This document shows positions 17,397-51,602 of a DNA stretch of 64,000 nucleotides, one piece after another (the stretch's first letter is position 1; the number at the start of each line of letters is the position of its first letter). The stretch lies in the NCBI GenBank assembly GCA_965238135.1, contig OZ250177.1, forward strand, positions 541,744 through 605,743, read 5' to 3'. The stretch comes from Candidatus Multivorans sp. (lineage in GTDB: Bacteria; Acidobacteriota; Thermoanaerobaculia; Multivoradales; Multivoraceae). The notes beneath the pieces are model-generated. The model ran no database searches. It saw nothing but the letters and a program-made list of their open reading frames with translations, and was not told the DNA's origin. The position numbers were made by a program, and so were the translations under genes.

Positions 17397-17471
17397 AGTC
17401 GGCGTCTCAGGGATGTCTGGATACGACATGCCTGAAGTGACGCGGGACGCTACGGGAGGTCGCCTAACCAG

Positions 17472-19823
17472 ATGGACAAGCGAGATCTCTCAGAGCGCGA
17501 TATCTGCACGAAGTTCATCACGCCCGCCCTGCGCGGGGCCGGATGGGACGAGATGTCACAGCTTCGCGAGGAGGTGAGCTTCACCGATGGCCGCATCACC
17601 GTGCGAGGAAAGATGGTTTCGCGCGGAAAGCGGAAGCGCGCCGACTACATCCTCGACTTCAAGCCGAACATTCCGCTCGCGGTGATCGAGGCCAAGGACA
17701 ATACCCACAGCGTGGGCGACGGCATGCAGCAGGCCTTGGACTACGCCGGGACCCTGAACATCCCGTTCGCGTTCTCGTCGAACGGCGACGGCTTCGTGTT
17801 CCACGACCGCACGGGGGCCAGTACGCCCCGCGAGACGAACCTGCCGCTCGACGCGTTTCCGTCGCCGGCCGATCTGTGGGCGCGCTATCGGGCCTGGAAG
17901 GGCCTGACGCCGGAGGCCGAGAGGATCGTCCTCCAGGACTACTTCGAGGACCGTGGCGGCAAGACGCCGCGCTACTACCAGATCAACGCCGTCAACGCGA
18001 CGATCGAGGCCATCTCCAAGGGGCAGGACCGCATCCTGCTCGTCATGGCCACGGGCACGGGCAAGACGTACACCGCTTTCCAGATCATCTGGCGGCTGTG
18101 GAAGGCGCGGCGCAAGAAGCGCATCCTGTTCCTTGCCGACCGCAACGTGCTCATCGACCAGACGATCGCGAACGACTTTCGCCCGTTCGGCGGGGCCATG
18201 ACCAAGCTCTCGCGCGACATCGACGCCTCCTTCGAGGTGTATCTCGGCCTCTATCAGGCGATCACGGGGCCGGACGACCACCAGAAGGCGTTTCGGAAGT
18301 TCTCGCCGGAGTTCTTCGATCTGATCGTGATCGACGAATGCCACCGGGGAAGTGCAGCTGACGATTCGGCGTGGCGCGAGATCCTCGAGTACTTCTCCTC
18401 CGCAACCCAGATCGGCCTCACCGCCACGCCGAAGGAGACGAAGTATGTCTCCAACATCGACTACTTCGGGGAGCCCGTCTTCTCCTACTCCCTGAAACAG
18501 GGCATCCGCGACGGCTTCCTCGCGCCCTACAAGGTGGTCAAGGTCCACATCGACCGGGACGTCGAAGGCTACCGTCCGGAAAAGGGCCAGCTTGACCGCG
18601 ACGGAGAGGAGGTTGAGGACCGCATCTACAATGTCAGGGACTTCGATCGCACGCTCGTCATCGACGGGCGGACGAAGCTGGTGGCTGAGAAGGTCACGAC
18701 GTTTCTGCGGGAGAGCGGCGACCGCTTCCAGAAGGCGATCGTTTTCTGCGTCGATCAGGAGCACGCCGCCCGGATGCGCCAGGCGCTCGTCAACGAGAAT
18801 GCCGATCTTGTCGAGCGCAACGCACGGTATGTCATGCGGATCACGGGCGCGGACGAGGCTGGAAAGGCCGAACTGGGGAACTTCATCGATCCCGAATCGA
18901 GTCACCCGGTGCTCGTCACCACGTCGCGCCTGCTGTCCACCGGCGTCGATGTCCAGACGTGCCGGGTCATCGTGCTCGACCGGGAGGTAGGCTCGATGAC
19001 CGAGTTCAAGCAGATCGTCGGCCGCGGCACCCGAGTGCATGAGGACACCGGGAAGTTCTACTTCACGCTCATCGACTTCCGGAACGCGAGCGGCCACTTC
19101 GCGGACCCGGACTTCGACGGCGAGCCGGTGCAGATCTACGAACCAGGCGTGGGGGATCCGATCCTTCCTCCCGATACGCCCGAGGATGAAGACCTCGGTG
19201 AAGAGGAGATGGCCGCTATCGGGGGCGGCAACGGCCTGCCGCCCACGGAGACGCATCCCCTGAAGATCTTTGTTGATGGCATCGAGGCGACCATCGTCGC
19301 CGAGCGGGTCGAGTACCTCGACGAGCACGGCAAGCTCATCACCGAGTCGCTACGCGACTTCACGAGGAAGGCGCTGCGCAGGCGCTTCGCGAGCCTGGAC
19401 GACTTCCTGAACCGTTGGAATGCTGCGGAGCGCAAGCAGGCGATCATCGACGAGATGGCGGCCGAGGGCCTGCCACTTACTGCGATTGTCCCTGAATTGG
19501 GCAAGGATCTCGACCCCTTCGATCTCGTCTGCCACATCGCCTTCGACGTCAAGCCGCTAACCCGCCGGGAACGGGCCGAGAACGTCAGGAAACGGGACGT
19601 GTTCACGAAGTACGGAGGACAGGCCCGCGCCGTGCTCGACGCACTGCTCGACAAGTACGCCGACGAGGGCGTCATCAATCTCGACGACGCCAACGTGCTC
19701 AGGATTCCGCCGCTCGACAGTCTCGGCACCCCGGTCGAGCTCGTCCGCGCCTTCGGCGGAAAGCCCGGCTTCGAGCGGGCCGTGCGCGATCTTCAGTCGG
19801 CGCTCTACAGGGAGGTCGCCTAA
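17472..19823 (+). CDS. hsdR: Type I restriction-modification system, restriction (R) subunit HsdR
   Basis: N-terminal HsdR_N PD-(D/E)xK nuclease motif (DYILDF...IEAKD). SF2 helicase motifs I LVMATGTGKT, II DECHR, III LTATP, VI QIVGRGTR. GGGAGG RBS upstream. Confidence 0.9.
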   Translation: MDKRDLSERDICTKFITPALRGAGWDEMSQLREEVSFTDGRITVRGKMVSRGKRKRADYILDFKPNIPLAVIEAKDNTHSVGDGMQQALDYAGTLNIPFAFSSNGDGFVFHDRTGASTPRETNLPLDAFPSPADLWARYRAWKGLTPEAERIVLQDYFEDRGGKTPRYYQINAVNATIEAISKGQDRILLVMATGTGKTYTAFQIIWRLWKARRKKRILFLADRNVLIDQTIANDFRPFGGAMTKLSRDIDASFEVYLGLYQAITGPDDHQKAFRKFSPEFFDLIVIDECHRGSAADDSAWREILEYFSSATQIGLTATPKETKYVSNIDYFGEPVFSYSLKQGIRDGFLAPYKVVKVHIDRDVEGYRPEKGQLDRDGEEVEDRIYNVRDFDRTLVIDGRTKLVAEKVTTFLRESGDRFQKAIVFCVDQEHAARMRQALVNENADLVERNARYVMRITGADEAGKAELGNFIDPESSHPVLVTTSRLLSTGVDVQTCRVIVLDREVGSMTEFKQIVGRGTRVHEDTGKFYFTLIDFRNASGHFADPDFDGEPVQIYEPGVGDPILPPDTPEDEDLGEEEMAAIGGGNGLPPTETHPLKIFVDGIEATIVAERVEYLDEHGKLITESLRDFTRKALRRRFASLDDFLNRWNAAERKQAIIDEMAAEGLPLTAIVPELGKDLDPFDLVCHIAFDVKPLTRRERAENVRKRDVFTKYGGQARAVLDALLDKYADEGVINLDDANVLRIPPLDSLGTPVELVRAFGGKPGFERAVRDLQSALYREVA

Positions 19824-19826
19824 GAG

Positions 19827-21278
19827 ATGTCCGTCAGCACTCTGGTCAAGTCCATTCAGAACATCATGCGCCAGGACGCTGGGGTGGACGGCGACGCGCA
19901 GCGCATCAGCCAACTGTGCTGGATGTTCTTCCTCAAGATCATCGACGACCAGGACCAGGAACTCGAGCTCTTTGACGACGGCTACGGCTCGCCCGTCCCT
20001 GCAGATCTGCGATGGCGGAGCTGGGCGGCCGACCCGGAAGGCATCACCGGCGAAGAGCTGCTCGACTTCGTCAACGGCGATCTCTTTCCACAGCTCAAGG
20101 AACTCCCGCCCAGGGCAGGCCCTCGCGCGAACGTCGTGCGCGACGTGTTCGAGGACGCCTACAACTACATGAAGTCTGGTCAGTTGATGCGGCAGGTGGT
20201 CAACAAGATCAACAGCATCGACTTCAACAACCTGGCCGCCCGCCAGCACTTCGGCGACATCTACGAGCAGATTCTGAACGACCTGCAATCGGCCGGCAAC
20301 GCGGGTGAGTACTACACCCCGCGGGCCGTGACCACCTTCATGGCCCGGATGATCGACCCGAAGCCGGGCGAGATCCTGTTCGACCCGGCTTGCGGCACGG
20401 GCGGGTTCCTCACCTGCGCTATGCAGCACATGCGCGAGCGGTATGTGAAGCGGCCCGAGGACGAGGCGAGCATGCAGGTTTCGCTGCTCGCGGTGGAGAA
20501 GAAGCCGCTTCCCCACATGCTCGCCGTCACGAACATGCTGCTGCACGGCATCGAGGATCCGTCCTTCCTGCGCCACGACAACACCTTGGCGCGGCCCTAC
20601 ACCTCCTGGGGCCGCGACGAGCGCGTGGACATCGTGCTGACCAATCCGCCGTTCGGCGGCAAGGAGGAGGATGGCATTGAGTCGAACTTCCCACAGCACT
20701 TCCGAACGCGAGAGACGGCGGACCTGTTCCTGGCCCTGATCATCCGGCTACTCAAGCCTGGAGGCAGGGCCGCCGTCGTCCTGCCAGACGGCTCCCTGTT
20801 CGGCGAAGGCGTCAAGACGCGGCTCAAGGAGCACCTGATGAAGGAGTGCAACCTTCACACCATCGTGCGCCTGCCGAACTCGGTGTTTCGCCCCTACGCC
20901 TCGGTCGGAACGAACCTGCTGTTCTTCGAGAAGGGCGAGCCGACGAGGGACATCTGGTTCTGGGAGCATCTCGTACCCGAAGGCCAGAAGGCCTACTCCA
21001 TGACACGGCCCGTACGGGTGGAGCATCTCGACGACTGCGCCGATTGGTGGGGTGGGACGGAGCGCACCGGCCGGGAGGAGGGTGGCCGGGCCTGGAAGGT
21101 GAGCGCCGACGAGATCAAGGCGCGCGGCTACAACATCGACATCAAGAACCCTCATACCGAGGAGGAGGACCTTGGCGATCCCGAGACGCTTCTGGAGGAA
21201 CTGACGAGCGCCGAGGCTGAGGTGCTGTCGGTGCGGAGTGAGTTGAGGCGAATTCTGACTGAGGCGCTCCTACGGTGA
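19827..21278 (+). CDS. hsdM: Type I R-M N6-adenine DNA methyltransferase subunit HsdM
   Basis: Motif I FDPACGTGGFL and motif IV LTNPPFGG; HsdM N-terminal domain. Start is 4 nt after the hsdR stop. Confidence 0.92.
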   Translation: MSVSTLVKSIQNIMRQDAGVDGDAQRISQLCWMFFLKIIDDQDQELELFDDGYGSPVPADLRWRSWAADPEGITGEELLDFVNGDLFPQLKELPPRAGPRANVVRDVFEDAYNYMKSGQLMRQVVNKINSIDFNNLAARQHFGDIYEQILNDLQSAGNAGEYYTPRAVTTFMARMIDPKPGEILFDPACGTGGFLTCAMQHMRERYVKRPEDEASMQVSLLAVEKKPLPHMLAVTNMLLHGIEDPSFLRHDNTLARPYTSWGRDERVDIVLTNPPFGGKEEDGIESNFPQHFRTRETADLFLALIIRLLKPGGRAAVVLPDGSLFGEGVKTRLKEHLMKECNLHTIVRLPNSVFRPYASVGTNLLFFEKGEPTRDIWFWEHLVPEGQKAYSMTRPVRVEHLDDCADWWGGTERTGREEGGRAWKVSADEIKARGYNIDIKNPHTEEEDLGDPETLLEELTSAEAEVLSVRSELRRILTEALLR

Positions 21279-23044
21279 ACGCCGACCGCTTGCTCGCCCT
21301 CTACGACCGCGTGGCGGACGCGCCGGACGCCATCGGCCGCCTGAGCCGGTTCGTGCTTGACACCGCCGTGCGCGGCAAGCTCGTGAAGCAGGATCCGGCG
21401 GATGAACCGGCATCAGAGTTGCTGCGACGGATCGACGCCGAGAAAGCGCGAATGGTCAAGGCGGGAGAGATCAGAAAGCCCCGCAATCTGTCGACCGGTG
21501 AGGACTTGGTGGCACTCTTTGAGGTTCCGGCCAAATGGTGCTGGCGGCGCCTCGATACAATAGGAGCTATCGTTGGTGGTGGCACGCCATCGGCTGGCGA
21601 TCCTGCGAACTTCTCGGAGCCCGGAGAGGGCGTCGCGTGGTTGACACCCAAGGACCTCGGCAGCCTCGGAAGCTCATACATCGGCCGCGGTAGCCGCGAT
21701 CTCTCGGGAAAGGGCTTTCGTTCGTCATCGGCCACTCTCATGCCGACTGGGACTGTCCTCTTTTCAAGTCGAGCGCCGATCGGGTACGTCGCGATCGCTG
21801 CAAACCCGGTTGCGACGAATCAGGGGTTCAAATCCGTCGTCCCCTATGTTTCTGATTGTTCGAGGTACATAGCGCTGGTGATGCAGGCGTTTGGGCCTGC
21901 AATCGACGCCATGGCGTCAGGGACCACCTTCAAAGAGGTTTCGGGAAGGACTGTCGCCGGCGTTCCCTTCCCTCTCCCGACGCTCGCCGAGCAGCACCGC
22001 ATCGTCGCCAAGGTCGATGAACTCATGGCGCTGTGCGACCGTTTAGAGGAAGCTCGCGTCTCCCGGGAGGGCGCCCGCGACCGGCTGACGAGGGCCAGCC
22101 TGTCGCGCTTGGTTGCGGCAGAGGCAGAAGAAGCGCAGGCAGCTACGTTCCGGGTTCTTGCGCGTTTCACAGTCGATGCCCTTCCCGCGCTGACGGCCCG
22201 CGCCGACCAAGTCCAGGGCTTTCGCCAGACCATTCTCGGCCTCGCGGTCCGGGGAAGGCTGGTCGAGCAGGATCCCGCTGACAAACCGGCGTCGGAACTC
22301 CTGAAGCGGATCGCCGCCGAAAAGGCGCGAATGGTGGGGGCGGGGGCGATCCGGAAGCCACGCAGTCTGCCGAACGGTGAGGACTTGGCAGCACCGTTCG
22401 GGATTCCGGACACCTGGTGCTGGGACCGCCTCGATGCCATTGGAGCAATCGTCGGTGGTGGCACACCGTCTGCGAGCGATCACAAGAACTTTGCGCAATC
22501 GGGAGAGGGTATTCCGTGGCTCACGCCGAAAGACCTCGGCGGCCATGAAGACCTGTACATCGAACGCGGCAGCCGCGATCTGTCGACGAGTGGTCTGCGA
22601 TCGTCCTCGGCGACACTCATGCCTGCGGAAACAGTCCTTTTCAGTAGCCGTGCGCCGATAGGGTACGTGGCAATCGCGGCGAACCCAGTTGCCACCAATC
22701 AGGGCTTCAAGTCCATCGTCCCGTACGTGCCGGGCTGCTCCAGATTCATCGCCTTGGCGATGAGGGCGTTCGGGCCTGAGATCGCTGCCAGTGCTCCGGG
22801 GACGACATTCAAGGAGGTGTCAGGAAAGCTCGTCGCTGGCGTTCCCTTTCCTCTCCCGCCACTCGCCGAGCAGCACCGCATCGTCGCCAGGGTCGACGAA
22901 CTCATGGCGCTGTGCGACGGGCTGGAGGGAAGTCTTGCGACTGCGGACGACACGCGCGGCCGCCTGCTTGACTCTCTCCTCGATGAAGCGTTGGCCGCCG
23001 ACTGGGCCGCCACGGTCCAACACGTCGCGGAGTCTCAGCCATGA
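21275..23044 (+). CDS. hsdS: Type I R-M specificity subunit HsdS with two near-identical target-recognition halves
   Basis: Overlaps the hsdM stop (ATGA). Two ~290-aa halves, each with a TRD and the conserved LAEQHRIVA(K/R)VDELMALCD(R/G)LE spacer; halves are ~75-80% identical to each other. Confidence 0.88.
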   Translation: MNADRLLALYDRVADAPDAIGRLSRFVLDTAVRGKLVKQDPADEPASELLRRIDAEKARMVKAGEIRKPRNLSTGEDLVALFEVPAKWCWRRLDTIGAIVGGGTPSAGDPANFSEPGEGVAWLTPKDLGSLGSSYIGRGSRDLSGKGFRSSSATLMPTGTVLFSSRAPIGYVAIAANPVATNQGFKSVVPYVSDCSRYIALVMQAFGPAIDAMASGTTFKEVSGRTVAGVPFPLPTLAEQHRIVAKVDELMALCDRLEEARVSREGARDRLTRASLSRLVAAEAEEAQAATFRVLARFTVDALPALTARADQVQGFRQTILGLAVRGRLVEQDPADKPASELLKRIAAEKARMVGAGAIRKPRSLPNGEDLAAPFGIPDTWCWDRLDAIGAIVGGGTPSASDHKNFAQSGEGIPWLTPKDLGGHEDLYIERGSRDLSTSGLRSSSATLMPAETVLFSSRAPIGYVAIAANPVATNQGFKSIVPYVPGCSRFIALAMRAFGPEIAASAPGTTFKEVSGKLVAGVPFPLPPLAEQHRIVARVDELMALCDGLEGSLATADDTRGRLLDSLLDEALAADWAATVQHVAESQP

Positions 23045-24189
23045 CCCGCGTCCCGGTATCGTCCGAGATGCTGCGCTGGGCCTGCGAGCGCTCCGGTCGC
23101 GACGTCGCGGACCTCGCGGCCCGTGTTCCTCAGCTTCCGGCTTGGGTCCGAGGCGAGAGACAGCCGACGCTCAAACAGTTGGAGAGGCTGGCCACGGCTA
23201 CGCGGACGCCATTCGGTTATCTGTTCCTGACCGCGCCGCCGGAGGAGCGTCTTCCGGTTCCCGACTTTCGTACGGTGTGGGGTGCTTTCCGGGCGAGACC
23301 GACCCCCGACCTGCTGGACACGCTGTACAGCATGCAACGTCGCCAGGAGTGGCTCCGGGAGAGCTTGGTCGAGAGCGACGTGGGACCGCTGTCGTTCGCT
23401 GGAAGCGCCCGCCTGACGGATGACCCGGCCTCCGTGGGTCGGGAGATGCGGCGAGCACTCGGTCTCGATGACGGCTGGGCTGCGGAAGTGAGCACCTGGC
23501 AAGAGGCTGTGAGGGAGCTTCGCCGGGCCATTGAGCAGGTCGGCGTGATGGCGGTGATCAACGGAGTAGTCGGGAACAACACGAGCCGGAAGCTGAGCGT
23601 GGAGGAGTTTCGCGGCTTCGCGCTCACGGATCCTTACGCCCCGTTGATCTTCGTGAATGGCGCTGACGCCAAGTCGGCGCAGATGTTCACTCTCGCCCAC
23701 GAGTTGGCCCACATCTGGCTTGGCACGGAGGGGGTCTCCGGCTTCGAGTCCCTGTTCCCCGGCGGCTCGGACGTGGAGGACTGGTGCAACGCGGCCGCGG
23801 CTGAACTCCTCGTCCCTTCGGAGGAAGTGGCACCTCGTTGGAACGAGGTGAAGAGGGGACCAAGGCCGTTCGAGACGCTCGCCCGGGCGTTCAAGGTGAG
23901 TCCGGTTGTTGCCGCCCGCCGGGCCCTGGACCTGAGTCTTGTCGACCGCGACGCCTTTCGCGACTTCTACAAGGGGTACGTCAAGCGCGATCTCGCGAGT
24001 GGCGCGAGTTCCACCGGGGGCAACTTCTACAACAACCAGAACACCCGTGTCGGCGAGCTGTTCGCGTCCCACGTGCTCCGTGCGGCGATGGAGGGCCGAA
24101 TCGGGTTCAAGGAAGCCTACGACCTGACTGGCTTGCGTGGAGGAACCTTCCAGAAGTACGCGAGGCGACTGGGGGTGAATCTCCCATGA
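23041..24189 (+). CDS. HTH-domain plus ImmA/IrrE-family zinc metallopeptidase (COG2856-like)
   Basis: Overlaps the hsdS stop. Central HEXXH motif HELAHIWLG within an ImmA/IrrE-like region; N-terminal helix-turn-helix-like segment. Confidence 0.75.
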   Translation: MTRVPVSSEMLRWACERSGRDVADLAARVPQLPAWVRGERQPTLKQLERLATATRTPFGYLFLTAPPEERLPVPDFRTVWGAFRARPTPDLLDTLYSMQRRQEWLRESLVESDVGPLSFAGSARLTDDPASVGREMRRALGLDDGWAAEVSTWQEAVRELRRAIEQVGVMAVINGVVGNNTSRKLSVEEFRGFALTDPYAPLIFVNGADAKSAQMFTLAHELAHIWLGTEGVSGFESLFPGGSDVEDWCNAAAAELLVPSEEVAPRWNEVKRGPRPFETLARAFKVSPVVAARRALDLSLVDRDAFRDFYKGYVKRDLASGASSTGGNFYNNQNTRVGELFASHVLRAAMEGRIGFKEAYDLTGLRGGTFQKYARRLGVNLP

Positions 24190-24722
24190 CGAACGGCACG
24201 ACCTACCTCGTGGACTCGGATGTGTTCATCACGGCGAAGAACCTGTACTACGCGTTCGGCCTGTGCCCCGGGTTCTGGAAGAGCGTGCTGCACCACCATC
24301 GGAGGGGCCGGATTTTCAGCGTCGACAGGGTTCGCAGCGAACTCCTCGCGGGCACCGAGACAGAGGATCTCGTGCGGTGGGTCAAGGAAGAAGTTCCACG
24401 GGAGTTCTTTCTCCCGGTGGATGCCGACGCTGTCGTGAGTGCCTACACGGAGATCATGATGTGGGTGCAGCGCCACGGGAGGTACTTCGACCACGCCAAG
24501 GCGAAGTTCGCCACCGGAGCGGACGGCTGGTTGGTCGCCTGCGCACGGGTTCAGGGCGCCGCCGTGGTCACGAACGAACGGGAGGCGCCGGAGTCCCGGA
24601 GGGAGATCAAACTGCCCGACGTGTGCGAGGAGTTCGGTGTGGAGCACCCCAACGTCTTCGAGATGCTTCAGGCGTTGGACATCCAGTTCGACTGGACGGA
24701 GGACCGGAAGCCGGCGTCGTGA
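24186..24722 (+). CDS. DUF4411 family (PIN-like) protein, partner of the ImmA/IrrE peptidase
   Basis: ATGA overlap with the upstream gene. N-terminal YLVDSDVFITAKNLYYAFGLCPGFW motif characteristic of DUF4411. Confidence 0.7.
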   Translation: MTNGTTYLVDSDVFITAKNLYYAFGLCPGFWKSVLHHHRRGRIFSVDRVRSELLAGTETEDLVRWVKEEVPREFFLPVDADAVVSAYTEIMMWVQRHGRYFDHAKAKFATGADGWLVACARVQGAAVVTNEREAPESRREIKLPDVCEEFGVEHPNVFEMLQALDIQFDWTEDRKPAS

Positions 24723-24813
24723 GTCCGGTACGCGACGGTCGGTCCCGACCGGGCTTTGCGGAGTGGATTCGGACGTGTTCACTACGGCGAAGAACCTGCC
24801 GGCGGCTGGCTGA

Positions 24814-25095
24814 TCAGCCAGCGCGTTCGAAGCCGACCGTTAGCCGCGCGCCGGTCGCTCCCGCATAGCGCCGCAGCGTCGCGTACGACGGCGACACCCG
24901 GCCCCCTTCCAGCCGCGCGATCGCCGATTGGGTCGTGCCGAGCCGTTCGGCCAGTTCCGCCTGCGTCAGCTTCGCCGCCGTCCGGGCGCAGATCATCGCC
25001 TCGATCAGCGCATACTCGCTGTCGGCACTGGCGTACTCCTCCCGAAACGCCGGATCCTCCAGCAGGCGCGCCTTCAGATCCTTCAGCTTCGTCAT
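24814..25095 (-). CDS. XRE-family helix-turn-helix DNA-binding protein (HigA/antitoxin-like size)
   Basis: 93 aa; HTH segment LTQAELAERLGTTQSAIARLEGG. No adjacent toxin ORF recognised. Confidence 0.8.
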   Translation of the reverse strand: MTKLKDLKARLLEDPAFREEYASADSEYALIEAMICARTAAKLTQAELAERLGTTQSAIARLEGGRVSPSYATLRRYAGATGARLTVGFERAG

Positions 25096-25262
25096 GGCCT
25101 CACTTCGCGGTCCTCATAGCGTATCCGCTATGCCGACGCGCGTGGAATCCAGAGTCGGCCAACGCCCGACGCACCCGCCTGCGCCGGCCGGTATCGCAGC
25201 GGTTTGGAGGGACGTGCGCAGGGCGCCGCGTTAGCGCCTTCCGGCCTACCAACCTTGGCGGG

Positions 25263-25895
25263 CTACCGGATCTCGACGTACCGCGCCAGCCGTTCGACCT
25301 CGTCGTCGTCAACGTACTTGCCGATCTCGCGCCGGAACTGAGACATCGCCTCGTAGGGTCGGTACTCCTCGAACTCGTGCCGCATGCGTCGGCCGACGCC
25401 GGGGATGTTCAGGATGTCCTCGCCGGACGCCGTGTTCAGGTCGATGCGGGCGTACACGTACTGGGCGAGCCGCGTCACCTCATCGTCGTCGACGTACTTG
25501 CCGATTTCCCGGTGGAACTGGGCAAGCGCCGTGTAGGGGCGGTACTCCTCGAACTCGTGGGTCATCCGCCGGCCGACCCCCGGGATGAGCCCGATCTCCT
25601 CGGAGGTCGCGTCGTTCAGGTCGATGGGGACCCAGATCGCCCCGTAGACCTCGTCGTACCGGTCTTCGGTGACGTGGGCCGAGATCACGGCGTGGAGGTC
25701 GGCGGCCCGCAGGAAGGGGCGGCCGTCGAGCAACGCCTTGAGGGCGTCACCGTCGAGGCCGTCCACGTCGGCTAGCTCCTCCTCGCTGGCGAGGTTTGGG
25801 TTGAGCAGGCCGTGGTTGGCCCCGACCTGGGGTGTGATAGGTAGGGCGGCTAGGAACAGGGCTGATGTAGTCCACATTAGGGCCGAGCACTTCAT
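25263..25895 (-). CDS. Secreted ComEA-like protein with three tandem helix-hairpin-helix DNA-binding units
   Basis: Start at 25895. Signal peptide MKCSALMWTTSALFLAALPITPQVGA. Three repeated ~70-aa units containing (D/E)LN(D/T)A(S/T)xE(E/D)(I/L)xxIPGVGRRMxHEFEEYRPY. The last two units are ~85% identical at DNA level. Confidence 0.75.
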   Translation of the reverse strand: MKCSALMWTTSALFLAALPITPQVGANHGLLNPNLASEEELADVDGLDGDALKALLDGRPFLRAADLHAVISAHVTEDRYDEVYGAIWVPIDLNDATSEEIGLIPGVGRRMTHEFEEYRPYTALAQFHREIGKYVDDDEVTRLAQYVYARIDLNTASGEDILNIPGVGRRMRHEFEEYRPYEAMSQFRREIGKYVDDDEVERLARYVEIR

Positions 25896-25924
25896 CTGGA
25901 GATTCGTCCTCTTGCTGCTTCTTG

Positions 25925-26398
25925 CTAGTTGTGCGGTGTGGCGGGGTCCGCCGCGTCGCTGTCTTCTGACGTGGCGGCGGATCTGCCGGCCGCGGGGTGC
26001 TGGAGGGCGACGAGTATACCGAGCAGGCCGAGCAGGATCATGGCCCCCGGGGCCAGAGTCGGCATGGCGCCTCCCAGGCTCTCGTTGACCAGTTCGAGGC
26101 CGCTCGAGTTCGGATGAAGTTCCCGCTCGAACTCGACGTTGGACTGGAAGTGGAAGTAGACGCCGAGCAGACCGGCTGGGACGTAGGCGACTAGCAGAAT
26201 CCGGAAAGTCCGCACTGCCGCGACGGACGGACGCGCTGCCAACCACAAGCTGGCTGTGGTGCCAGCTGCCAGGAGCACGAGCGGGATCCACTGCTTGCTG
26301 TCCTCGTAGTGATCCAACAGGTACAACTCGGCAAGCAGACCGAGTGCCCCGAAGAGCAGGATGTACAACAGGTACCGTCGCCAGCCCTCGATGTTCAC
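25925..26398 (-). CDS. Small integral membrane protein (4 predicted TM helices), co-oriented upstream of the ComEA-like gene
   Basis: 157 aa with hydrophobic stretches YLLYILLFGALGLLAELYLL, WIPLVLLAAGTTASLWLAA, ILLVAYVPAGLLGVYF, AMILLGLLGILVAL. Gene-like GC3. Confidence 0.6.
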   Translation of the reverse strand: MNIEGWRRYLLYILLFGALGLLAELYLLDHYEDSKQWIPLVLLAAGTTASLWLAARPSVAAVRTFRILLVAYVPAGLLGVYFHFQSNVEFERELHPNSSGLELVNESLGGAMPTLAPGAMILLGLLGILVALQHPAAGRSAATSEDSDAADPATPHN

Positions 26399-26982
26399 GG
26401 TGTTCCGCGTCGCCCCTCGAACCGACCCTAGAGCCCGGCCGTGGATTTCCCGCTACGGCCGCGGATCCGCTTGCTGTGGTGTGACGCGTCACCCTGGTCG
26501 GACGAGGGAAGGCTCGGCCAACCGACAACGTCGAACCCGCGGAGGGGCCGGGGAACGCCACACTACCGCAGCCGTTCGGATCCATCGGAGAGGCATGTCG
26601 GGTGCTGCTGCCGGTGGCAGTTTCGGCCCCACCGGTCTGGGTGGCCTTGAAGTCTTCCCGCAGGGATCAACTCTTGACGGGAGCGACCCCGCCGGTGGAA
26701 GCCGGCGTATTGCCGGCGCGCCGCACCGGGGACCGGGGCCACGGGGTCGCTCCCGTCACGCTCTGGACGCATGTCGCGGCCGGGGCGTTTCATTCTCGGG
26801 AGGGGATCCACTGGTGAGAAGAGAAGACTCAGTTGCACGTTCCTGGAAGTCGCTCGGGCCGATTGGTGGAAGTGAGCGGCTGTTGTTGCCCTTCCGTCGC
26901 TGTACGGGGCCTGGCGCGGCTAGACTGTGGAACTGGACCGGAGCCGGGCGGCTGGGTTCTGGCGGCGAGAGGTAGACAGGGG

Positions 26983-27828
26983 ATGGACATTCGAGAGCGT
27001 CAGAATTGCCAGCGGTCGTTGGAGAGGCTGGTCGCCGTAGGTTGGCTCTATGGACGGGTCAAGAAGGTGGAAGGCTGGCGGCTGGTGTTCATAGTAGGCG
27101 TCGCGGGTCTGCTGCTGTCGGGTCTGGCCGTGGAAGCGGATGCCTACAGCCGAGTGGCGGCGATCGTCGTCGTCTTGCTCTGGTGCATAGACCAGGCGGT
27201 TCTGGTTGCATGCGCCGACAGGATGAAGGAAGAGGCGGCGGCGATTCAAGAAGACTTCGACTGTTTCGTCCTCGGCCTACCGTGGCCGGAGCACTGCGGT
27301 GTCGGGCGGCCGACGGATGACAGGGTGAGAGACTTGGCGACGATGGCAGGTGGGCGAGGCGAGCAGAGGGAGGAGCTGGCTGACTGGTACGGAAGGGACG
27401 GTATTCCCGAGGAACCGCTGTCAGCGCGGCTGTATTGCCAGAGAACCAACTGCCGGTGGGACGAACGACTGCGCAAAGAGTGGATCTGCGCCATCAGATC
27501 CTTCGCGGGCGGGTCGCTGGCTGTGGGCCTCGTTGTGGCAGCGCTGGCCGGCGTCTCGCTGCTCGGGGTGGTTCTTGCGGCGGCGGCGGGACTCAGGCTT
27601 GTTGCGTGGTTGGCGATGGAAGTCAGGGCTCAATCGGCGGCGAGGAAGCGTATGAAAGAGCTGCATGGCTTCCTGTCGCGGCCCGGCGCGCAGACCGGCA
27701 GGCTGACCCTTTGCGACTCCCGGCTCGTGCAGGCGCGACTCTTCGAGCACCGGCGGCTTAGCCCGACTGTGCCGGATTGGTTTTATCGGTTGAGGAAGAC
27801 GGATCACGAGGCGATGGAACCGGGTTGA
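26983..27828 (+). CDS. Membrane protein with 2TM + soluble linker + 2TM architecture (candidate pore-forming effector, SLATT/S-4TM-like)
   Basis: ATG at 26983. TM pairs LVFIVGVAGLLLSGLAVEA / VAAIVVVLLWCIDQAVLVACA and GGSLAVGLVVAALAGVSLLGVVLAAAAGLRLVAWLAMEV, separated by a ~90-aa soluble region; charged C-terminal tail. No catalytic motifs. Confidence 0.55.
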   Translation: MDIRERQNCQRSLERLVAVGWLYGRVKKVEGWRLVFIVGVAGLLLSGLAVEADAYSRVAAIVVVLLWCIDQAVLVACADRMKEEAAAIQEDFDCFVLGLPWPEHCGVGRPTDDRVRDLATMAGGRGEQREELADWYGRDGIPEEPLSARLYCQRTNCRWDERLRKEWICAIRSFAGGSLAVGLVVAALAGVSLLGVVLAAAAGLRLVAWLAMEVRAQSAARKRMKELHGFLSRPGAQTGRLTLCDSRLVQARLFEHRRLSPTVPDWFYRLRKTDHEAMEPG

Positions 27829-27950
27829 ATAGGCACCGTAGCCAACTGGCTGGCCGGACGTGGAAGCAGCCGTCGAGAAGGCCACGGTCTGGGCGCGGAG
27901 GGGCTTCGGATCGTGGAGCGTCCGCCGGTGTCTTCGAAGGGAAGGGTCGA

Positions 27951-28376
27951 CTACGTTCGTCGCTTGCGCAGGATGGAGTCCACGAAGCGGAGAACCGTGG
28001 CCCGTTCGTCGGCGTCGAGTTCCAGTATCTGTCGAACCAGCACGACGGTTGAGTTACGCCGCTGTGCGTCCGACGGGTCCCCGTCGGTGGGAACCCAATG
28101 TGCCCAGGCCGCTAAGGTCTGAAAGTTCAGCCCATAGAGGTCGGCTAGTTCCAGGAGCACGATCGGGTCGGGCTGTCTGATTAGGCCCCGTTCGATCTGG
28201 GACAGGTATGCGTTGGATCGCCCGATGCGTCGTTCTACCTCGCGAAGAGACAGTTGGTAGTGCAGGCGAGCGCGGCGCAGAACGCCACCCACCTGCGGAG
28301 GATCTTGGCGGTGAGTGCGATCTGGCTTAGCCGGGGACCGGGCGGTCGCTGATCTACGGGAAGCGTGATCGGTCAT
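27951..28376 (-). CDS. XRE-family HTH transcriptional regulator with C-terminal extension, divergent from the TRIP13-SMODS operon
   Basis: HTH segment LSLREVERRIGRSNAYLSQIERG followed by a ~70-aa C-terminal domain. Start uncertain (28376 or 28490). Confidence 0.65.
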   Translation of the reverse strand: MTDHASRRSATARSPAKPDRTHRQDPPQVGGVLRRARLHYQLSLREVERRIGRSNAYLSQIERGLIRQPDPIVLLELADLYGLNFQTLAAWAHWVPTDGDPSDAQRRNSTVVLVRQILELDADERATVLRFVDSILRKRRT

Positions 28377-28601
28377 GGTTCTGGGGCCGCTACGACCGAG
28401 GAGCCCGGGAGCCGCAGTGTGTGTGTGTCGAGCGACCCGGCGTTTCGGTTGTTCCGAGCGCGATCCTCTCGGTGCGAGAGGGGCTCGCATGGCTTCGCGG
28501 CTGTCCAGCGCAGGCGACGCTCGCCCTTCCGCCGCCGGGGGAGTTCCAGTCGGTGGAGCCGGGGGTTGCGGTCGATCGGAATGCGAAGTAGAGTTGCACC
28601 T

Positions 28602-29522
28602 ATGCAAACCAGAAGCGCAAATGGGCTGATGGCGGAGTCGGTACGCGTCGTGCGCGTGATGCCAGATCCGGCGTACGCGGGCCTATGGGACTCGATTGTA
28701 GTGGATGCCTCGGTAAAGGACCGGCTGCTCCGAGCGACAGTGTTGAATCTCCGGCTACGCGCCGAGCTGCCGTTCGAGACGACGGCGCTGCACGGGCTCG
28801 TCCTGCTGCATGGACCGCCAGGAACGGGCAAGACGACGTTGGCGCGCGGGCTGGCCCAGGAACTGGCGAAGATCACGGCGGACCGTAAGGCTCGACTGGT
28901 CGAGGTCAACCCGCATGGTCTCATGAGCGCCGAACATGGGGAGAGCCAACGAGCGGTAACGCAACTGCTTACAGAGTACGTGCCGAGCCTTGTTGACGAC
29001 GGGATGGCAACGGTGGTTCTCCTCGACGAGGTCGAGTCGATGGCCATCGCGAGGAGTGAAGCGTCGCTGGGCGCGAATCCAGCAGACGTGCATCGAGCGA
29101 CGGATGCAGTGCTGGCGGCGCTCGACTTGAATACGACGGAGGTCCCCAATTTGGTCTTCGTGGCGACGAGCAACTTCGTCGACGCGCTGGACGAGGCATT
29201 CTTGTCGCGGGCAGACGTCCATATCTGCGTCCCGGCGCCGGATTCTGCGGGGATCGTGGAGATTCTGAAGCACGCGTTTCGGTCGATGGCGCCGGCTTTT
29301 TCCTGCCTCGGCGAGTTGGCCTCCGACCCTCGACTCAAAGAGGTCGCAGGGCGTCTGGCGGGCGCGGACGGCCGACGAGTCCGCAAGACGATCATGGAAG
29401 CGATGTTAGGGCGCCAGGAGACGGTACTGGATCCGGGAAGCACAACGATCGATGATCTGCTCGCGGCGGCGACGCGGGTTATGGAGAACAGCGACATCGA
29501 GCATGGAAGCTCGGAGGGCTGA
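28602..29522 (+). CDS. TRIP13/Pch2-like AAA+ ATPase (CBASS Cap6-like)
   Basis: Walker A [23 protein letters not shown]. The blocks [69 protein letters not shown] align closely with conserved TRIP13 blocks ([22 protein letters not shown] / [21 protein letters not shown] / VLIDEVESL / [30 protein letters not shown]). Start could be 28581-28629. Confidence 0.8.
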   Translation: [306 protein letters not shown]

Positions 29523-29523
29523 A

Positions 29524-30018
29524 ATGGAGCGACAGAGGACAATCGCCGCGTCACCGGTTCGGAGCGCCGCCGAAGCGTGGGACGTTGTAACTACACTGAT
29601 CGCAGAGACGCTTGAGCGCAGCCCTGAGGTCCCGGATGGGAGCGTAGCCGAGGAGTTTGCGGCGCTGGAGGGGCTGGGCCCGGCTCTCATCGCGGCCGGG
29701 CATTTGGAATCGGACGGCCTGGTGCTCTGCGACGATGGCCTGCATGTGACGATTCGGGTCTTGACCGCGGATGCGGCACTCGCAGTCAAGGAGAATCTCA
29801 ATCCCGTGCCCGGTGGCGGGCGTGCTTCGGGTGCGTGGATCCTCTATCTACCTTCGCCCGGAGCACTCGAAACGAGCGTGGCCGGCGCGGCGAAGCGGTC
29901 TGCGCATCTATCTGTAGACGCACCGCCGAAGTCGGCGCCGTTGGCAAAGGGGAAGAAACGGGAGGCAGGTTCGGTCATTGATCTGGGCGCACTCCGCAAG
30001 GCGACATCGAAATGGTGA
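29524..30018 (+). CDS. Small protein of unknown function (164 aa), translationally coupled between TRIP13-like ATPase and SMODS; candidate HORMA-domain protein
   Basis: GGAGGG RBS overlapping the TRIP13 stop. No recognisable motifs; basic disordered C-terminal tail (PPKSAPLAKGKKREAGSVIDLGALRKATSKW). HORMA assignment is inferred from context only. Confidence 0.5.
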   Translation: MERQRTIAASPVRSAAEAWDVVTTLIAETLERSPEVPDGSVAEEFAALEGLGPALIAAGHLESDGLVLCDDGLHVTIRVLTADAALAVKENLNPVPGGGRASGAWILYLPSPGALETSVAGAAKRSAHLSVDAPPKSAPLAKGKKREAGSVIDLGALRKATSKW

Positions 30019-30518
30019 CATCGACCTCGGTCTCGACCTATACGCGCACTCATACGGCTACGCACTTGGCGGACGTCATTCTGGGCTCGATTGCCGACAT
30101 CTTGGGAACGCTTCGCATTGATCCCACGCGGCTGTTTGCGGATTGGGAGACGGATCAGGCGGCCATCTCGAACTGGATTGCGGAAGGCTCGCTCAAGTGC
30201 GTCGCACTCGAATGCCACCGCCCGGACGGAACGGTGAACCCGATCTTCGAGTTCCCGCTGTCGTACACGGGCACGGGGCCGGGGAATCGGAAGTTCACGG
30301 CTGATCGGGCCGCGCTGGCACGCTATCTGGCGAAGCTGCAGCTAGTGCCGGCTGGAACTACATATCGCCTCTTCTGCAGCTTCAATGGACCCCATTCGGT
30401 GCAGGCGGGATGGTCCCCTGGGACAAGGGCGTCCGTTGGGGGCCTGCGCTCGGTGAGCTTTGGGACCCTCGCTGCCGGACCGCACGCCGGCGCGGGAATG
30501 CGCTACTACCGAAAGTAG
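30012..30518 (+). CDS. Small protein of unknown function (168 aa), translationally coupled (ATGGTGA overlap); candidate HORMA-domain protein (Cap7-like size)
   Basis: Overlaps the previous ORF's stop by 7 nt. Gene-like codon usage. No sequence motif recognised. Confidence 0.5.
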   Translation: MVTSTSVSTYTRTHTATHLADVILGSIADILGTLRIDPTRLFADWETDQAAISNWIAEGSLKCVALECHRPDGTVNPIFEFPLSYTGTGPGNRKFTADRAALARYLAKLQLVPAGTTYRLFCSFNGPHSVQAGWSPGTRASVGGLRSVSFGTLAAGPHAGAGMRYYRK

Positions 30519-30526
30519 GTGAGAGG

Positions 30527-31384
30527 ATGAGCTACGTCGACGACGCGTTCGATAAGTTGAAGTCGAATCTCGAGATTACGAAGACCGAGAGCCACCAGGC
30601 GCAGATTCGGCACCAGTTGGTGCGCGAGCACATCGAGGCCTCGTGGGAGTTGGTGGAGCATTTTCTCACCGGCAGCTACAAGCGACACACCAAGACGAAG
30701 AAGCTGAAGGACGTCGACATATTCGTCGTCGTCGATCCAGAGGGGCCGCAGGCCGCATTGGCTGACGGTACGGGAACGGCGGCTGTGCTTGCGTTGCACG
30801 ACTTACTGGCCGAACGCTGGAACGATCTGGGCGCCGACGACAACGTGGTGACGATCCACTATGGCGACGAAGACGTCGCGTCGTACGAGGTCGCTCCGGT
30901 CTTCCCGCGAAGCGGTGGCGGCTATTCGATGCCCAACGGCGTGGCGTGGATGGACACCGACCCGCAGGAGCAAGCGGAGCTCGTGACGGTGAAGAACAAG
31001 GAGTGCGACGCGAAGTTCGTGCCCTTTGTGAAGATGGTCAAGGGAATCAACCGCGAGGCAGGAGACCCAATCGAGCCCGCGTTTCTGATGGAGGTGATGG
31101 CGCTGGACCTTGTGGTAGAGCCGTTTGGCCGGTACAGGGACGAGATCAGGTTCTACCTGGCTTCGGTCGCGGACCAGATTACCGACGACTGGCGGGATCC
31201 AGTCGGGCTTGGTCCGGACGTGAATGCCCGGATGGGGGCCCGCCGTCGGAAAGAGCTGTCGGAGATTGTGCGCGGGTGGCTGGGTGTCGCCGAGGAGGCG
31301 TTGCAGCTTGAATACGAAGGCAAAGAACGGGCGGCGGTAGAGGCGTGGCGCGAGCTGTTCGGCTGGCGCATGCCGAGGCCATGA
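30527..31384 (+). CDS. SMODS / CD-NTase-family nucleotidyltransferase (cGAS/DncV-like cyclic-oligonucleotide synthase)
   Basis: Hallmark pol-beta NTase active site GSYKRHTKTKKLKDVDIFVVVD (GS...[DE]h[DE]h) plus a downstream acidic triad residue in VTIHYGDEDVASYEVAPV. 285 aa. GGTGAGAGG RBS 8 nt after the preceding stop. Confidence 0.8.
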   Translation: MSYVDDAFDKLKSNLEITKTESHQAQIRHQLVREHIEASWELVEHFLTGSYKRHTKTKKLKDVDIFVVVDPEGPQAALADGTGTAAVLALHDLLAERWNDLGADDNVVTIHYGDEDVASYEVAPVFPRSGGGYSMPNGVAWMDTDPQEQAELVTVKNKECDAKFVPFVKMVKGINREAGDPIEPAFLMEVMALDLVVEPFGRYRDEIRFYLASVADQITDDWRDPVGLGPDVNARMGARRRKELSEIVRGWLGVAEEALQLEYEGKERAAVEAWRELFGWRMPRP

Positions 31385-31573
31385 GTTTCGAGTGCCTTCT
31401 ACAGACGCCCGGCCCCGACCGACCGTCATGTCCCACAAGTGCTTACATTGTCTGTTACTTCGCCAACTCCGAGCGGGAAGAAGTGAGCGCTCCCGTCCCA
31501 CCAACCCAGCAAAGCGAACGGCCGATGGGGACCTCTCCGCGGGCCCACCGCTGGCGGGTGCGCTGTACGGCGC

Positions 31574-33041
31574 TCACGGCGCCTCGCCCGCTACCGCCGC
31601 CTGTTCGTCGGCGAGCATGTTGCGGCGGTGGAGGACGTACGCCTTGATCAGCGCGACATCATCGCCGTCGAGGACCGGGGAGAAGTCGGGCATGCCGAGG
31701 TCGACAAGAGCGCCCTCGATCAGGGCGGCCTCGTAGGAGTCGAAGACGCGCTGCGACGACTCGCGCAGGTCGGGCGTGACGCCGCCGGAGACCGCGCCGT
31801 AGCCGTGGCAGACCAGGCAGTACTGGTTGAACAGCCGCCGCCCGGCGTCGATGTCCCTGGTCGAGGCGCCGTGCTCGACGCGGGTGACGCGCACCTCACG
31901 TCGCTCCTGCCGTTCGATCGGCTGGCCGGTGGCGCCCAGGGCATAAACGACGATGCGGCCCTCGCTTTCGACCGCCTGCCGGGCCGAGCGGGTGCCGACG
32001 GTGCCGAAGGCGCCGCCCCAGCCGGACATCACCGCGATGTACTGCGTGCCGCCGCTCTCGAAGGTGATCGGCGGCGCGTCCTCGGCCAGCATCTGACCCG
32101 AGAGGCCGGTGGCGTCGACGACTGCTTGAGGGATGTCCTCGGGTGCCGCGGGGCGCACGCCGAGGTTCCACTGGCCGGGGGTGTACTTGAAGTTCGGGTC
32201 CGGCACGTAGAAGTTCGCCATCTCCATCGCCGGGATGTAGACCAGCCCCGTTTGCGGGCTGAACGACATCGGATGCCAGTTGTGCCCGCCGAGTGGCCCG
32301 GGCGAGACGGCGACTGCCTGGTCGGTGTAGCGGGCGCCGGCCAGTTCGACCGGGCGGCCGGTGGCGAGGTCGACGTGACTGGCCCAGGTCACGGTGACGA
32401 ACTCCTCGGCCGAGATCAGCTCGCCGGTGCGGCGGTCGAGGACGTAGAAGAAGCCGTTCTTGGGCGCCTGCATCAGCACCTGGCGCACCCGGCCGTCAAT
32501 CGGCAGCTCGGCAAGCATGATCGGTTGGGTGGCGGTGTAGTCCCAGGTGTCGCCCGGCGTCGTCTGGTAGTGCCAGACGTGCTCGCCGGTGTCGGGGCGC
32601 AGCGCCACGATCGAGGACAGGAACAGGTTGTCGCCACCGCCGGGGCTGCGGATGTTCCGGTCCCACGGCGAGCCGTTGCCGACGCCGATGTAGAGCAGGT
32701 CGAGTTCGGGGTCGTAGACGATCGAGTCCCACACGGTGCCGCCGCCACCTGCGGTCCACCATTCGCCGGTCCAGGTCTCGGCGGCCATGCGCATCGCCTC
32801 GTTCTCGAAGCCGTCGGCCGGGTTGCCGGGCACGGTGTAGAAGCGCCACGCCAGCTCGCCGGTCTCGGCGTCGTAGGCGTCGACGTAGCCGCGCCCGCGG
32901 CACCGACCAGGGCCGCGTCGTCGACTCCGTAGGCGGCCTCCGCGCGACGGGCCGGCGGCTGGGAGAAGACGGAGGTTATACGACCAGAAACGCCGTGGCT
33001 GCCAAGCCGGCATGGGCGAGAAAGGTGCGCGATGGTCTCAT
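31574..33041 (-). pseudogene. PQQ-dependent quinohemoprotein alcohol dehydrogenase pseudogene (signal peptide joined to distal propeller + cytochrome c domain; internal deletion and at least two frameshifts)
   Basis: ATG at 33041 encodes MRPSRTFLAHAGLAATAFLVV then a stop. The frame then shifts to ...SQPPARRAEAAYGVDDAALVGAAGA, and again near 32887 to GYVDAYDAETGELAWRFYTVPG... through to a C-terminal CLVCH heme-binding cytochrome c domain. About 250 aa of the N-terminal propeller are absent relative to intact paralogs in this window. Confidence 0.7.
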
Positions 33042-40254: not shown

Positions 40255-40358
40255 GGTTGCTGCGAGAGTGGTCGTCCTGTTGTGCACGTCGTACCTCCTG
40301 TTGCGCCCACCGGGTGTTGGGCAGGCCGGCGACAGCGTATCGCGGTGCTGATCCTGTT

Positions 40359-42206: not shown

Positions 42207-42493
42207 CTTCTTTGTCTATTGGCGGTTGTCAGCGGGGCGCCCGGGTCAGTTGCTCGAGGCTCTGCGCTGACGACCGAGAGTTCCCCAGCGCAGAGCCAGA
42301 GCCGGTCACTGGCCGGTGCGTCTCTGGCGAGTGAATCCTACGGCAACTCGTAGCTTCATGGAGCCTCCGGAGGTCGGGCACGGCTCCGTTTCCGCTATCG
42401 TCGTCGCAGACGTATGGAAGCGGGCGACGGAGTTCTTCGCGTGCCATCGGAAGGCCGGCGGTTGAACCCGGCGTCGATACAGGAGCCAAGCTC

Positions 42494-51600: not shown

Positions 51601-51602
51601 GA

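Follow-up and report, generated by a model that had tools for sequence, protein, structure and literature searches.

Two blocks of defence genes lie between about 17.4 and 31.6 kb of a 64,000-nucleotide stretch of contig OZ250177.1 from Candidatus Multivorans sp. (hereafter, the window), on either side of two small genes that encode a membrane protein and an exported, ComEA-like helix-hairpin-helix (HhH) protein. An earlier note on this DNA had read the region as one composite island, fourteen kilobases of consecutive defence genes, in which this pair, two small open reading frames (ORFs) at 29.5-30.5 kb and a four-transmembrane (4-TM) protein were candidates for new immune functions. We show herein that a core gene pair of ~1.1 kb splits the stretch, and that the DNA on its two sides occupies two independently variable insertion sites, with a third, single-gene insertion (an OLD-like ATPase) further on. 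The region very probably represents two neighbouring hotspots of accessory DNA that flank a conserved two-gene core unit in a Ca. Multivorans-type chromosome. The cargo belongs to known kinds of systems, namely a type I restriction-modification (R-M) operon coupled to an ImmA/IrrE-DUF4411 pair and a type III cyclic oligonucleotide-based anti-phage signalling system (CBASS), and every candidate new immune gene is accounted for: the small ORFs are HORMA3 (Cap8) and HORMA2 (Cap7), the 4-TM protein is the known S-4TM CBASS effector, and the pair belongs to the core genome.

Two insertion sites around a conserved gene pair

Genes in the window were called by third-position GC content (GC3) and then scanned against Pfam and PADLOC profiles; GC along the window runs from 0.60 to 0.72, as in a high-GC genome. 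Loci with the HhH gene were collected from relatives at one genome per species, which gave 80 loci (numbered with L; the source contig itself is L001 among the loci fetched), and the window proteins were mapped onto all 80. Site occupancy was scored in 29 close relatives among them (Ca. Multivorans or other Thermoanaerobaculia metagenome-assembled genomes, MAGs), and breakpoints were placed by blastn against one relative, L002. The genes named in the earlier note are all present, with very strong Pfam or PADLOC family matches. The core pair and the insertions are as follows.

25263-25895, minus strand: HhH/ComEA-like exported protein, 210 aa (HHH_3, 7e-10); core gene, not cargo
25925-26398, minus strand: membrane protein, 157 aa, with four hydrophobic segments; core gene, conserved partner of the HhH gene
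17397-25261, unstranded: insertion A, 7,865 bp that separate the core genes for DUF1501 and HhH, where L002 has 6 nt; blastn breakpoints 17396/25262
26391-31570, unstranded: insertion B, 5,180 bp bounded by the core membrane gene on one side and by PQQ-dehydrogenase/cytochrome c on the other, where L002 has 0 nt
40346-42452: insertion C, 2,107 bp with a single gene (OLD-like ATPase), where L002 has 43 nt; an insertion also relative to L021

The L002 locus reads PQQ-dehydrogenase, PQQ-dehydrogenase/cytochrome c, membrane protein of 157 aa, HhH protein of 210 aa, DUF1501, DUF1800 and aldo-keto reductase, and contains no R-M, ImmA, DUF4411, XRE or CBASS gene. The same position of the pair, between the DUF1501 and PQQ-dehydrogenase genes and free of R-M, ImmA, XRE and CBASS genes, recurs in 11 other relatives. 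The membrane and HhH genes are adjacent in ~70 of the 80 loci, including those of Acidobacteriota, Gemmatimonadota, Bryobacterales, Marinacidobacterales and Rhodothermales; upstream of the pair, Gemmatimonadota have cytochrome c and MtrC-like genes, or NAPRTase, and in Multivorans the pair starts 0-6 nt after the PQQ-dehydrogenase/cytochrome c gene. Because the pair keeps its position in relatives that lack the defence genes and stays together across phyla, it is a conserved housekeeping unit. The earlier note had itself named synteny in relatives lacking R-M and CBASS as the mark of core genes, and this is the arrangement found. In addition, the HhH protein has 7,499 homologues, the best 120 of which are 51-100% identical, a level of conservation that, judged by sequence, is atypical of defence cargo; the HhH gene has a core-like GC3 of 0.905, and 25263-26398 does not combine atypical composition with absence from close relatives, as the cargo does. 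The membrane protein matches no Pfam or PADLOC family. Since the uncharacterised genes within what looked like a defence island prove to be core genes or known parts, an argument from guilt by association would have gone wrong in this case, and a false lead is removed.

In the uninterrupted locus, the core unit directly follows the PQQ-dehydrogenase/cytochrome c gene. Its products are probably periplasmic or membrane-associated. The pair is found repeatedly directly downstream of c-type cytochrome genes (L093/L094, 2728-6639; L002, 7326-10633), the neighbour being a PQQ-dehydrogenase/cytochrome c fusion in Multivorans and Cytochrome_CBB3 plus MtrC-like proteins in Gemmatimonadota; this recurrence hints at a function in periplasmic redox chemistry, and not in DNA uptake. 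Within the HhH gene, a 180-nt tandem duplication (25276-25629) gives two 60-aa HhH units that are 78% identical, and the gene of L047 and L057 (10001-10480) is shorter, with one such unit less and a product of ~156 aa. On contig OZ253534.1, two membrane-HhH loci with the DUF1501/DUF1800/aldo-keto reductase flank stand ~13 kb apart at 305-339 kb (L022 and L047), one carrying Gp49-XRE1 and the other ImmA-DUF4411. The PQQ-dehydrogenase/cytochrome c gene that abuts insertion B in the window (31574-33013, minus strand) encodes 479 aa, as against 724 aa in L002; the first ~213 aa, signal peptide included, and another ~69 aa from the interior are missing from its product. The gene is probably decayed, though its GC3 is still 0.90.

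Insertion A holds an hsdR-hsdM-hsdS-(HTH-ImmA/IrrE)-DUF4411 operon (HTH, helix-turn-helix), then a recombination scar and an orphan HigA-like antitoxin gene. Insertion B contains the genes for an S-4TM effector, a divergent XRE regulator, Trip13, HORMA3 (Cap8), HORMA2 (Cap7) and a CdnD-like cyclase; window positions 26390 and 31571 correspond by blastn to the neighbouring L002 positions 9502 and 9503. Cargo genes have a GC3 of 0.68-0.87, compared with 0.89-0.94 in the flanking core genes. Both 17397-25261 and 26391-31570 are thus atypical in composition, and their cargo is missing at the same locus in many close relatives, which bears out the earlier view of the R-M, ImmA/DUF4411 and TRIP13-SMODS genes as horizontally acquired defence cargo.

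Site A is empty in 12 of the 29 close relatives. Elsewhere it carries ImmA-DUF4411 alone (L007, L021 and L022), ImmA-DUF4411 with hsdRMS (L015, L016 and L031, whose hsdS alleles are 42-57% identical to that of the window), or XRE1 without intact R-M genes (L018, L047 and L057). Other relatives have HEC-01 (2e-153 and 3e-73), PDC-S01 AAA_14/DUF4143 ATPases (up to 9e-95), an AriA/GajA-like ATPase or a HEPN/nucleotidyltransferase pair at this site. Site B is empty in ~18 of the 29; the remaining relatives carry insertion sequence (IS) elements (DDE_Tnp_1, IS110 and DDE_3), DUF3800 or a TonB-dependent receptor, and CBASS occupies site B in the window only.

Three relatives retain pieces of a block like that of the window. 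In L018, 17397-17478, including the first 7 nt of hsdR, is joined to XRE1; in L021, the first 84 nt of hsdR are fused to ImmA-DUF4411; and in L057, two hsdR fragments are joined at 24775 to Gp49-XRE1. These are deletion intermediates, and they show decay and turnover of a window-like block. Together with the base-pair breakpoints, they document two adjacent hotspots of defence turnover in an uncultured acidobacterial lineage. Apart from a DUF4411 stub and a 17-nt hairpin described below, searches for direct or inverted repeats of the attachment-site or terminal-inverted-repeat type around the island gave chance-level matches only. A 28-nt inverted pair at 24727/31407 has arms that are 79% complementary, each hairpin-like by itself. 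There was no Rfam match at E<=0.1 over 16.5-32.5 kb.

The CBASS cassette and its divergent XRE gene

26983-27828, plus strand: S-4TM CBASS effector (PF18159, 3e-45; PADLOC Effector 4TM, 2.8e-42)
27951-28370, minus strand: XRE2, an XRE-family HTH protein of 139 aa (HTH_3, 1e-9), divergent, between S-4TM and TRIP13
28566-28607, plus strand: promoter-like element (TTGCGG-17 nt-TAGAGT) and, directly after it, the palindrome TTGCAcctaTGCAA, within which the TRIP13 ATG lies; candidate operator
28602-29522, plus strand: Trip13-like AAA+ ATPase, Cap6 (PADLOC TRIP13 PDLC00915, 3.8e-110; Pfam AAA; Walker A GPPGTGKT, Walker B VVLLDE)
29524-30018, plus strand: HORMA3 (Cap8), the first small ORF (PADLOC HORMA, 6.5e-35; precomputed PF27322 Cap8 on the source contig; PDB 6p8p, 5e-5)
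30012-30518, plus strand: HORMA2 (Cap7), the second small ORF (PF18173 bacHORMA_2, 9e-22; PADLOC HORMA, 5e-78; PDB 6p8r, 3e-17)
30527-31384, plus strand: CdnD-like CD-NTase, the SMODS cyclase (PADLOC Cyclase PDLC00809, 2.2e-89; PF18144; PDB 6p8u/6p82, 1e-38 end to end)
26675-26758, unstranded: inverted repeat (perfectly matched 17-nt arms, loop of 50 nt) within the 590 bp of non-coding DNA at the edge of insertion B

The gene complement of a type III CBASS is present: a cyclase with GS (GSYKRHTKT) and DVD motifs, aligned to P. aeruginosa CdnD, HORMA and Trip13 genes that abut or overlap, and an associated effector. Since the cyclase, HORMA2 and HORMA3 match solved PDB entries, the module is assigned by sequence to the two-HORMA ("2H") form of type III CBASS. 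The entries 6P82, 6P8U, 6P8R and 6P8P are presumably the P. aeruginosa CdnD and HORMA structures of Ye et al. 2020. From what that work is said to have established, we infer that HORMA2 and HORMA3 would bind a phage-derived peptide and activate the cyclase, and that Trip13 would strip the HORMA proteins off the cyclase and keep it silent in uninfected cells. The cyclic oligonucleotide would then activate the S-4TM membrane effector, and the infected cell would be killed.

Cyclase homologues (76-86% identical) led to five other, unrelated neighbourhoods, so that cassettes could be compared in six contexts. The cassette adjoins a type I R-M system in L083, GmrSD in L089 (with the effector inverted and co-directional with the HTH gene), and PIN/FitA genes plus a DruA-domain transposase gene in L090. 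A relative, L031, has it elsewhere in its genome, beside helicase, Zeta-toxin and Eco57I-like genes (L084/L085), and the cyclase on contigs L086-L088 is annotated by NCBI as from a Chloroflexi MAG. All five of these contexts contain the same six genes, including the divergent HTH gene; S-4TM stays with the cyclase in 6/6. Because the same six genes recur in unrelated neighbourhoods and nucleotide homology covers exactly 26981-31385 (78% to L084), the cassette is, on this sequence evidence, a mobile six-gene unit. Thus, an S-4TM-effector type III CBASS moves together with its own XRE regulator and candidate operator. In L086-L088 (L086, 3556-4511), an extra DUF6932 gene and a 177-aa HTH gene come before S_4TM, which they overlap; these are missing from the other cassettes.

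The gene for XRE2 is the sole mildly new point of the analysis and its one testable lead. The earlier note listed a minus-strand trio (membrane protein, ComEA-like protein and XRE HTH), all three of which lie where it placed them, and made no mention of this second minus-strand XRE gene within CBASS. It was also missed by the public gene call on the source contig, where an 800-bp gap was left empty, and it is likewise present and uncalled in L083. XRE2 is kept between S-4TM and TRIP13 in 6/6 contexts. It has 336 homologues; as a proxy for co-occurrence, 41 of the best 120 are on contigs size-matched to those of the best 120 cyclase homologues. An AlphaFold (AF2) model (pLDDT 73.5) shows an HTH domain of five helices, a helical hairpin at the C terminus and a disordered tail, and its fold matches are generic XRE regulators (SinR, ClgR, DdrO and C.AhdI), with the N-terminal domain of CapH (7t5u, TMt 0.82) at rank 42.

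A strict sigma-70 consensus scan passed no promoter-like site, and terminator counts were at chance level; the cassette promoter was found instead by comparative alignment. An element TTGnnn-17 nt-TAnAGT lies upstream of Trip13 in 6/6 cassettes, directly followed in all six by the palindrome TTGCA-N4-TGC(A/G)A (TAGCA in L083), the right half of which holds the Trip13 ATG. The remaining XRE2-Trip13 spacer is unconserved among the six, and no such palindrome occurs upstream of S-4TM. We infer that XRE2 would repress the Trip13-HORMA-cyclase operon by binding the TTGCA-N4-TGCAA palindrome over the promoter and start codon, and that the transcript would be leaderless.

Transcriptional regulators of CBASS include CapH/CapP, CapW and CapK/CapS (Lau et al. 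2022, bioRxiv 10.1101/2022.04.27.489752). An identification of XRE2 as CapH was rejected: it matches neither the capH model of PADLOC at E<=1e-3 nor any CapH chain among its PDB sequence matches, its fold matches are those of generic XRE proteins, and no M78 peptidase of the CapP type is found in the cassette, nor within 7-8 kb in the five other contexts. It is possible, at rather less than even odds, that XRE2 stands for a kind of CBASS regulator without a name as yet. It would be a solitary HTH repressor that belongs to the widespread S-4TM/Trip13/HORMA3/HORMA2/CdnD cassette itself, would act on the TTGCA-N4-TGCAA operator over a leaderless promoter, and would respond to a releasing signal that is neither the CapP protease nor the CapW WYL domain nor the CapK kinase. 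XRE2 may also split control of the effector from that of the sensor and cyclase.

The 17-nt hairpin at the edge of insertion B folds as RNA at -67 kcal/mol (z=-3.7). It has no Rfam match, is single-copy in the window and is absent from the other loci fetched, besides source contig L001; it occurs here only, and a repeated mobile element was accordingly ruled out. A second CBASS lies at 50938-52258 (minus strand), the "second SMODS islet" of the earlier note. Its Cap15-like 2TM effector is intact (50938-51666; PDLC00694, 1.7e-64; PF18153), and its cyclase is split in two frames, at 51902-52258 (profile positions 3-78, with GS and DVD) and 51603-51917 (positions 192-293). As the ORFs are split and ~113 profile positions are missing, this cyclase is a pseudogene, and the system looks half dead.

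The R-M operon, its coupled gene pair and neighbouring remnants

17472-19823, plus strand: hsdR, type I restriction subunit (PADLOC REase_I, E=0; Pfam ResIII, EcoEI_R_C and HSDR_N; Walker A GTGKT, DECH)
19827-21278, plus strand: hsdM, type I N6-adenine methyltransferase (MTase_I, 1.7e-215; N6_Mtase, 8e-72; DPACGTG, NPPF)
21275-23044, plus strand: hsdS, specificity subunit (Specificity_I, 3e-157; Methylase_S twice), with two target-recognition domains
23041-24189, plus strand: HTH-ImmA/IrrE (M78/DUF955) metallopeptidase (Peptidase_M78, 7e-15; weak HTH_3; HELAH motif; PDB 9vzy, 2.7e-23)
24186-24722, plus strand: DUF4411 PIN-like protein, a predicted nuclease toxin (PF14367, 2.5e-42)
24763-24798, plus strand: 5' remnant of a second DUF4411 gene (codons 9-20), 89% identical to 24210-24245
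24814-25095, minus strand: XRE1, HigA-like HTH protein (HTH_3, 6e-11; HTH_31, HTH_37)

The HsdR, HsdM and HsdS genes of the type I R-M system are adjacent (17472-23044), with catalytic motifs intact. The overlaps of 4 nt that the earlier note ascribed to all three hold for hsdM/hsdS (GTGA); hsdR and hsdM are separated by 3 nt. Overlaps of 4 nt also join hsdS to ImmA (ATGA) and, as the note had said, ImmA to DUF4411 (ATGA). Judged by this 3-nt gap and these overlaps, the five genes from hsdR to DUF4411 look like one operon. The two halves of hsdS (21345-21644 and 22224-22523) share 73% DNA identity over 300 nt; the likeness of the two target-recognition domains suggests a near-symmetric bipartite target. 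HsdR/M/S would methylate self DNA and cut unmodified incoming DNA.

The coupled HTH-ImmA/IrrE protein is predicted to be a protease-type antitoxin or regulator. It would control the PIN-like DUF4411 nuclease, and the two could form a second, abortive layer of defence, similar to the toxin-antitoxin (TA) system RosmerTA, reportedly introduced by Millman et al. 2022. By analogy with PrrC, one possibility is that ImmA-DUF4411, coupled to hsdS, acts as a back-up abortive module that fires upon inhibition of the R-M complex. The ImmA-DUF4411 pair travels together in 9 relatives, and ImmA accompanies DUF4411 without CBASS in 10. The DUF4411 family has been described as the toxin of HTH/DUF955/PIN TA systems, with the PIN-like family DUF4411.1 encoded behind fused HTH-DUF955 genes in TA systems predicted to have three components (Matelska et al. 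2017, PMC5499597). Pairing of ImmA-type protease antitoxins with diverse toxins, including PIN-like ones, is the RosmerTA theme (Ernits et al. 2023, PMC10440598). Toxicity or defence by DUF4411 pairs is not reported in these two studies (PMC5499597, PMC10440598).

Downstream of the operon, the DUF4411 remnant shares up to 94% identity with the beginnings of DUF4411 genes in relatives (L024, L027 and others), and by its sequence is a recombination scar of an earlier cargo replacement. The XRE HTH gene that follows is an orphan, as the earlier note had it, and can now be assigned to a family. L057 and L047 have a homologue of XRE1 (96% identity), and the gene just before it, which overlaps it by 4 nt, encodes an intact 107-aa Gp49/HigB-like toxin (PF05973, 2.7e-27); the window and L018 lack a 305-nt segment that carries it, and upstream of XRE1 in the window there are 167 nt of non-coding DNA and no Gp49 gene. 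Since the intact partner is found in L057/L047 and its segment is missing in the window, XRE1 is identified by sequence as the surviving antitoxin of a decayed HigBA-type pair. The intact Gp49 partner in L057 also ruled out XRE1 as an R-M controller (C) protein or CBASS regulator.

The gene in insertion C (40359-42206, minus strand), previously called a stand-alone OLD nuclease, encodes a clear ABC-ATPase head (AAA_15, AAA_21; NsnB-, AriA-, GajA- and PtuA-like). Its C-terminal ~290 aa match neither Toprim nor any other Pfam family, and the PDB OLD structure 6p74 matches at 3e-4 over the ATPase part only, so that the ATPase head of an OLD protein is supported and the nuclease part stays putative.

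Alternative readings and comparison with known systems

A single composite defence island, with the membrane/ComEA-like pair, the small ORFs and the 4-TM protein as new immune genes, would fit the physical position of the pair between two defence blocks and its want of a Pfam function or PADLOC match. This reading is exceedingly improbable, as the pair holds the same position in at least 12 relatives without flanking defence genes, is adjacent across phyla beside cytochrome/redox and housekeeping genes and includes an HhH gene of core-like GC3, and the other candidates are Cap8, Cap7 and S_4TM. Several observations do weigh against the preferred account of two hotspots that carry functional defence cargo. 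In the cyclase, the position of the third catalytic acid is probably taken by a Glu that stands in a shortened loop. The ImmA protein matches the RmrA models of PADLOC weakly (best 5e-9) and DUF4411 matches no PADLOC model, so the defence role of the pair stays putative. No integrase or transposase domain among the island genes scanned, and no tRNA gene in the 64-kb window, marks either insertion. Finally, the gene pair of the window is 80-85% identical in nucleotides to relatives with which DUF1501 shares 92-97%. Given this unusual divergence, the whole of 17.4-31.6 kb, core pair included, could have arrived as one block of 14 kb by homologous recombination in the DUF1501 and PQQ genes, and would then be a single island in evolutionary terms. 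Other close relatives differ much less between the two regions (92.6% and 93.6% for L002 vs L012), and the adjoining PQQ/cytochrome c gene is also aberrant. Import as one block is nonetheless unlikely: sites A and B vary independently, with ImmA/R-M but no CBASS in 10 genomes and B cargo without A cargo in others; the same combination of A and B is present in no sampled genome; and the pair generally shows a somewhat higher rate of evolution than its flanks.

A further alternative is that the ImmA/IrrE protease and an XRE protein act together on the CBASS operon, as the two parts of a DNA-damage switch of the CapP/CapH type. The ImmA protein does match the PADLOC capP model, weakly (7e-13), and XRE1 matches capH (2.6e-7); XRE2, like CapH, lies upstream of and divergent from the core CBASS genes, and it too consists of an HTH domain and C-terminal helices, with the TMt of 0.82 to 7t5u given above. 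On the contrary, the ImmA gene is translationally coupled to hsdS and DUF4411, 4 kb off across core genes, and accompanies DUF4411 in the relatives without CBASS; the cassette keeps XRE2 in five other contexts with no M78 peptidase near; and XRE2 matches neither the capH model nor a CapH PDB sequence. Such a switch is therefore very improbable.

Compared with the CBASS of P. aeruginosa ATCC 27853, the cassette shares the "2H" class, Trip13, a cyclase similar end to end to CdnD (1e-38), HORMA2 (3e-17) and HORMA3 (5e-5). The gene order there is reportedly CdnD-HORMA2-HORMA3-Trip13-NucC, in a type III system ascribed to Ye et al. 2020. Here the effector gene opens the cassette and the cyclase gene closes it, the reverse of that order; an S-4TM membrane protein takes the place of the NucC nuclease as effector, and a divergent XRE gene stands between effector and Trip13. 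Like CapH of the CapH/CapP system (10.1101/2022.04.27.489752), XRE2 is a small HTH protein with a C-terminal helical domain, encoded upstream of and opposite to the core CBASS genes and sharing their promoter region, which carries a conserved DNA element. Unlike CapH/CapP, CapW and CapK/CapS, it is not accompanied by a metallopeptidase, WYL domain or kinase, either within the cassette or beside it, in any of the six contexts.

The R-M system resembles other type I systems (its HsdR has an EcoEI-like C-terminal domain) in its three subunits, intact motifs and R-M-S order, and the difference of hsdS alleles among relatives (42-57% identity) is expected for specificity switching; it is otherwise ordinary, except for the TA pair coupled to hsdS. 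A fused HTH-M78 gene directly upstream of, and overlapping, a DUF4411.1 gene is the arrangement of HTH-DUF955/PIN TA systems outside Actinobacteria (PMC5499597). The pair differs from RosmerTA in its weak RmrA matches (5e-9) and in that DUF4411 is not among the RmrT models of PADLOC, and from both kinds of system in being co-operonic with hsdRMS. As regards HigB(Gp49)/HigA systems, XRE1 has a close counterpart (96% identity) in the antitoxin of the intact Gp49-HTH pair of L057 and L047, whereas the toxin gene is deleted in the window and L018.

Hotspots of defence islands between conserved core genes are known from E. coli and P. aeruginosa. The two sites described here share with them fixed core flanks, varying defence, TA and IS cargo, and empty sites in relatives. 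They differ in having no integrase, in belonging to an uncultured acidobacterial lineage, and in lying merely 1.1 kb apart around a two-gene core unit.

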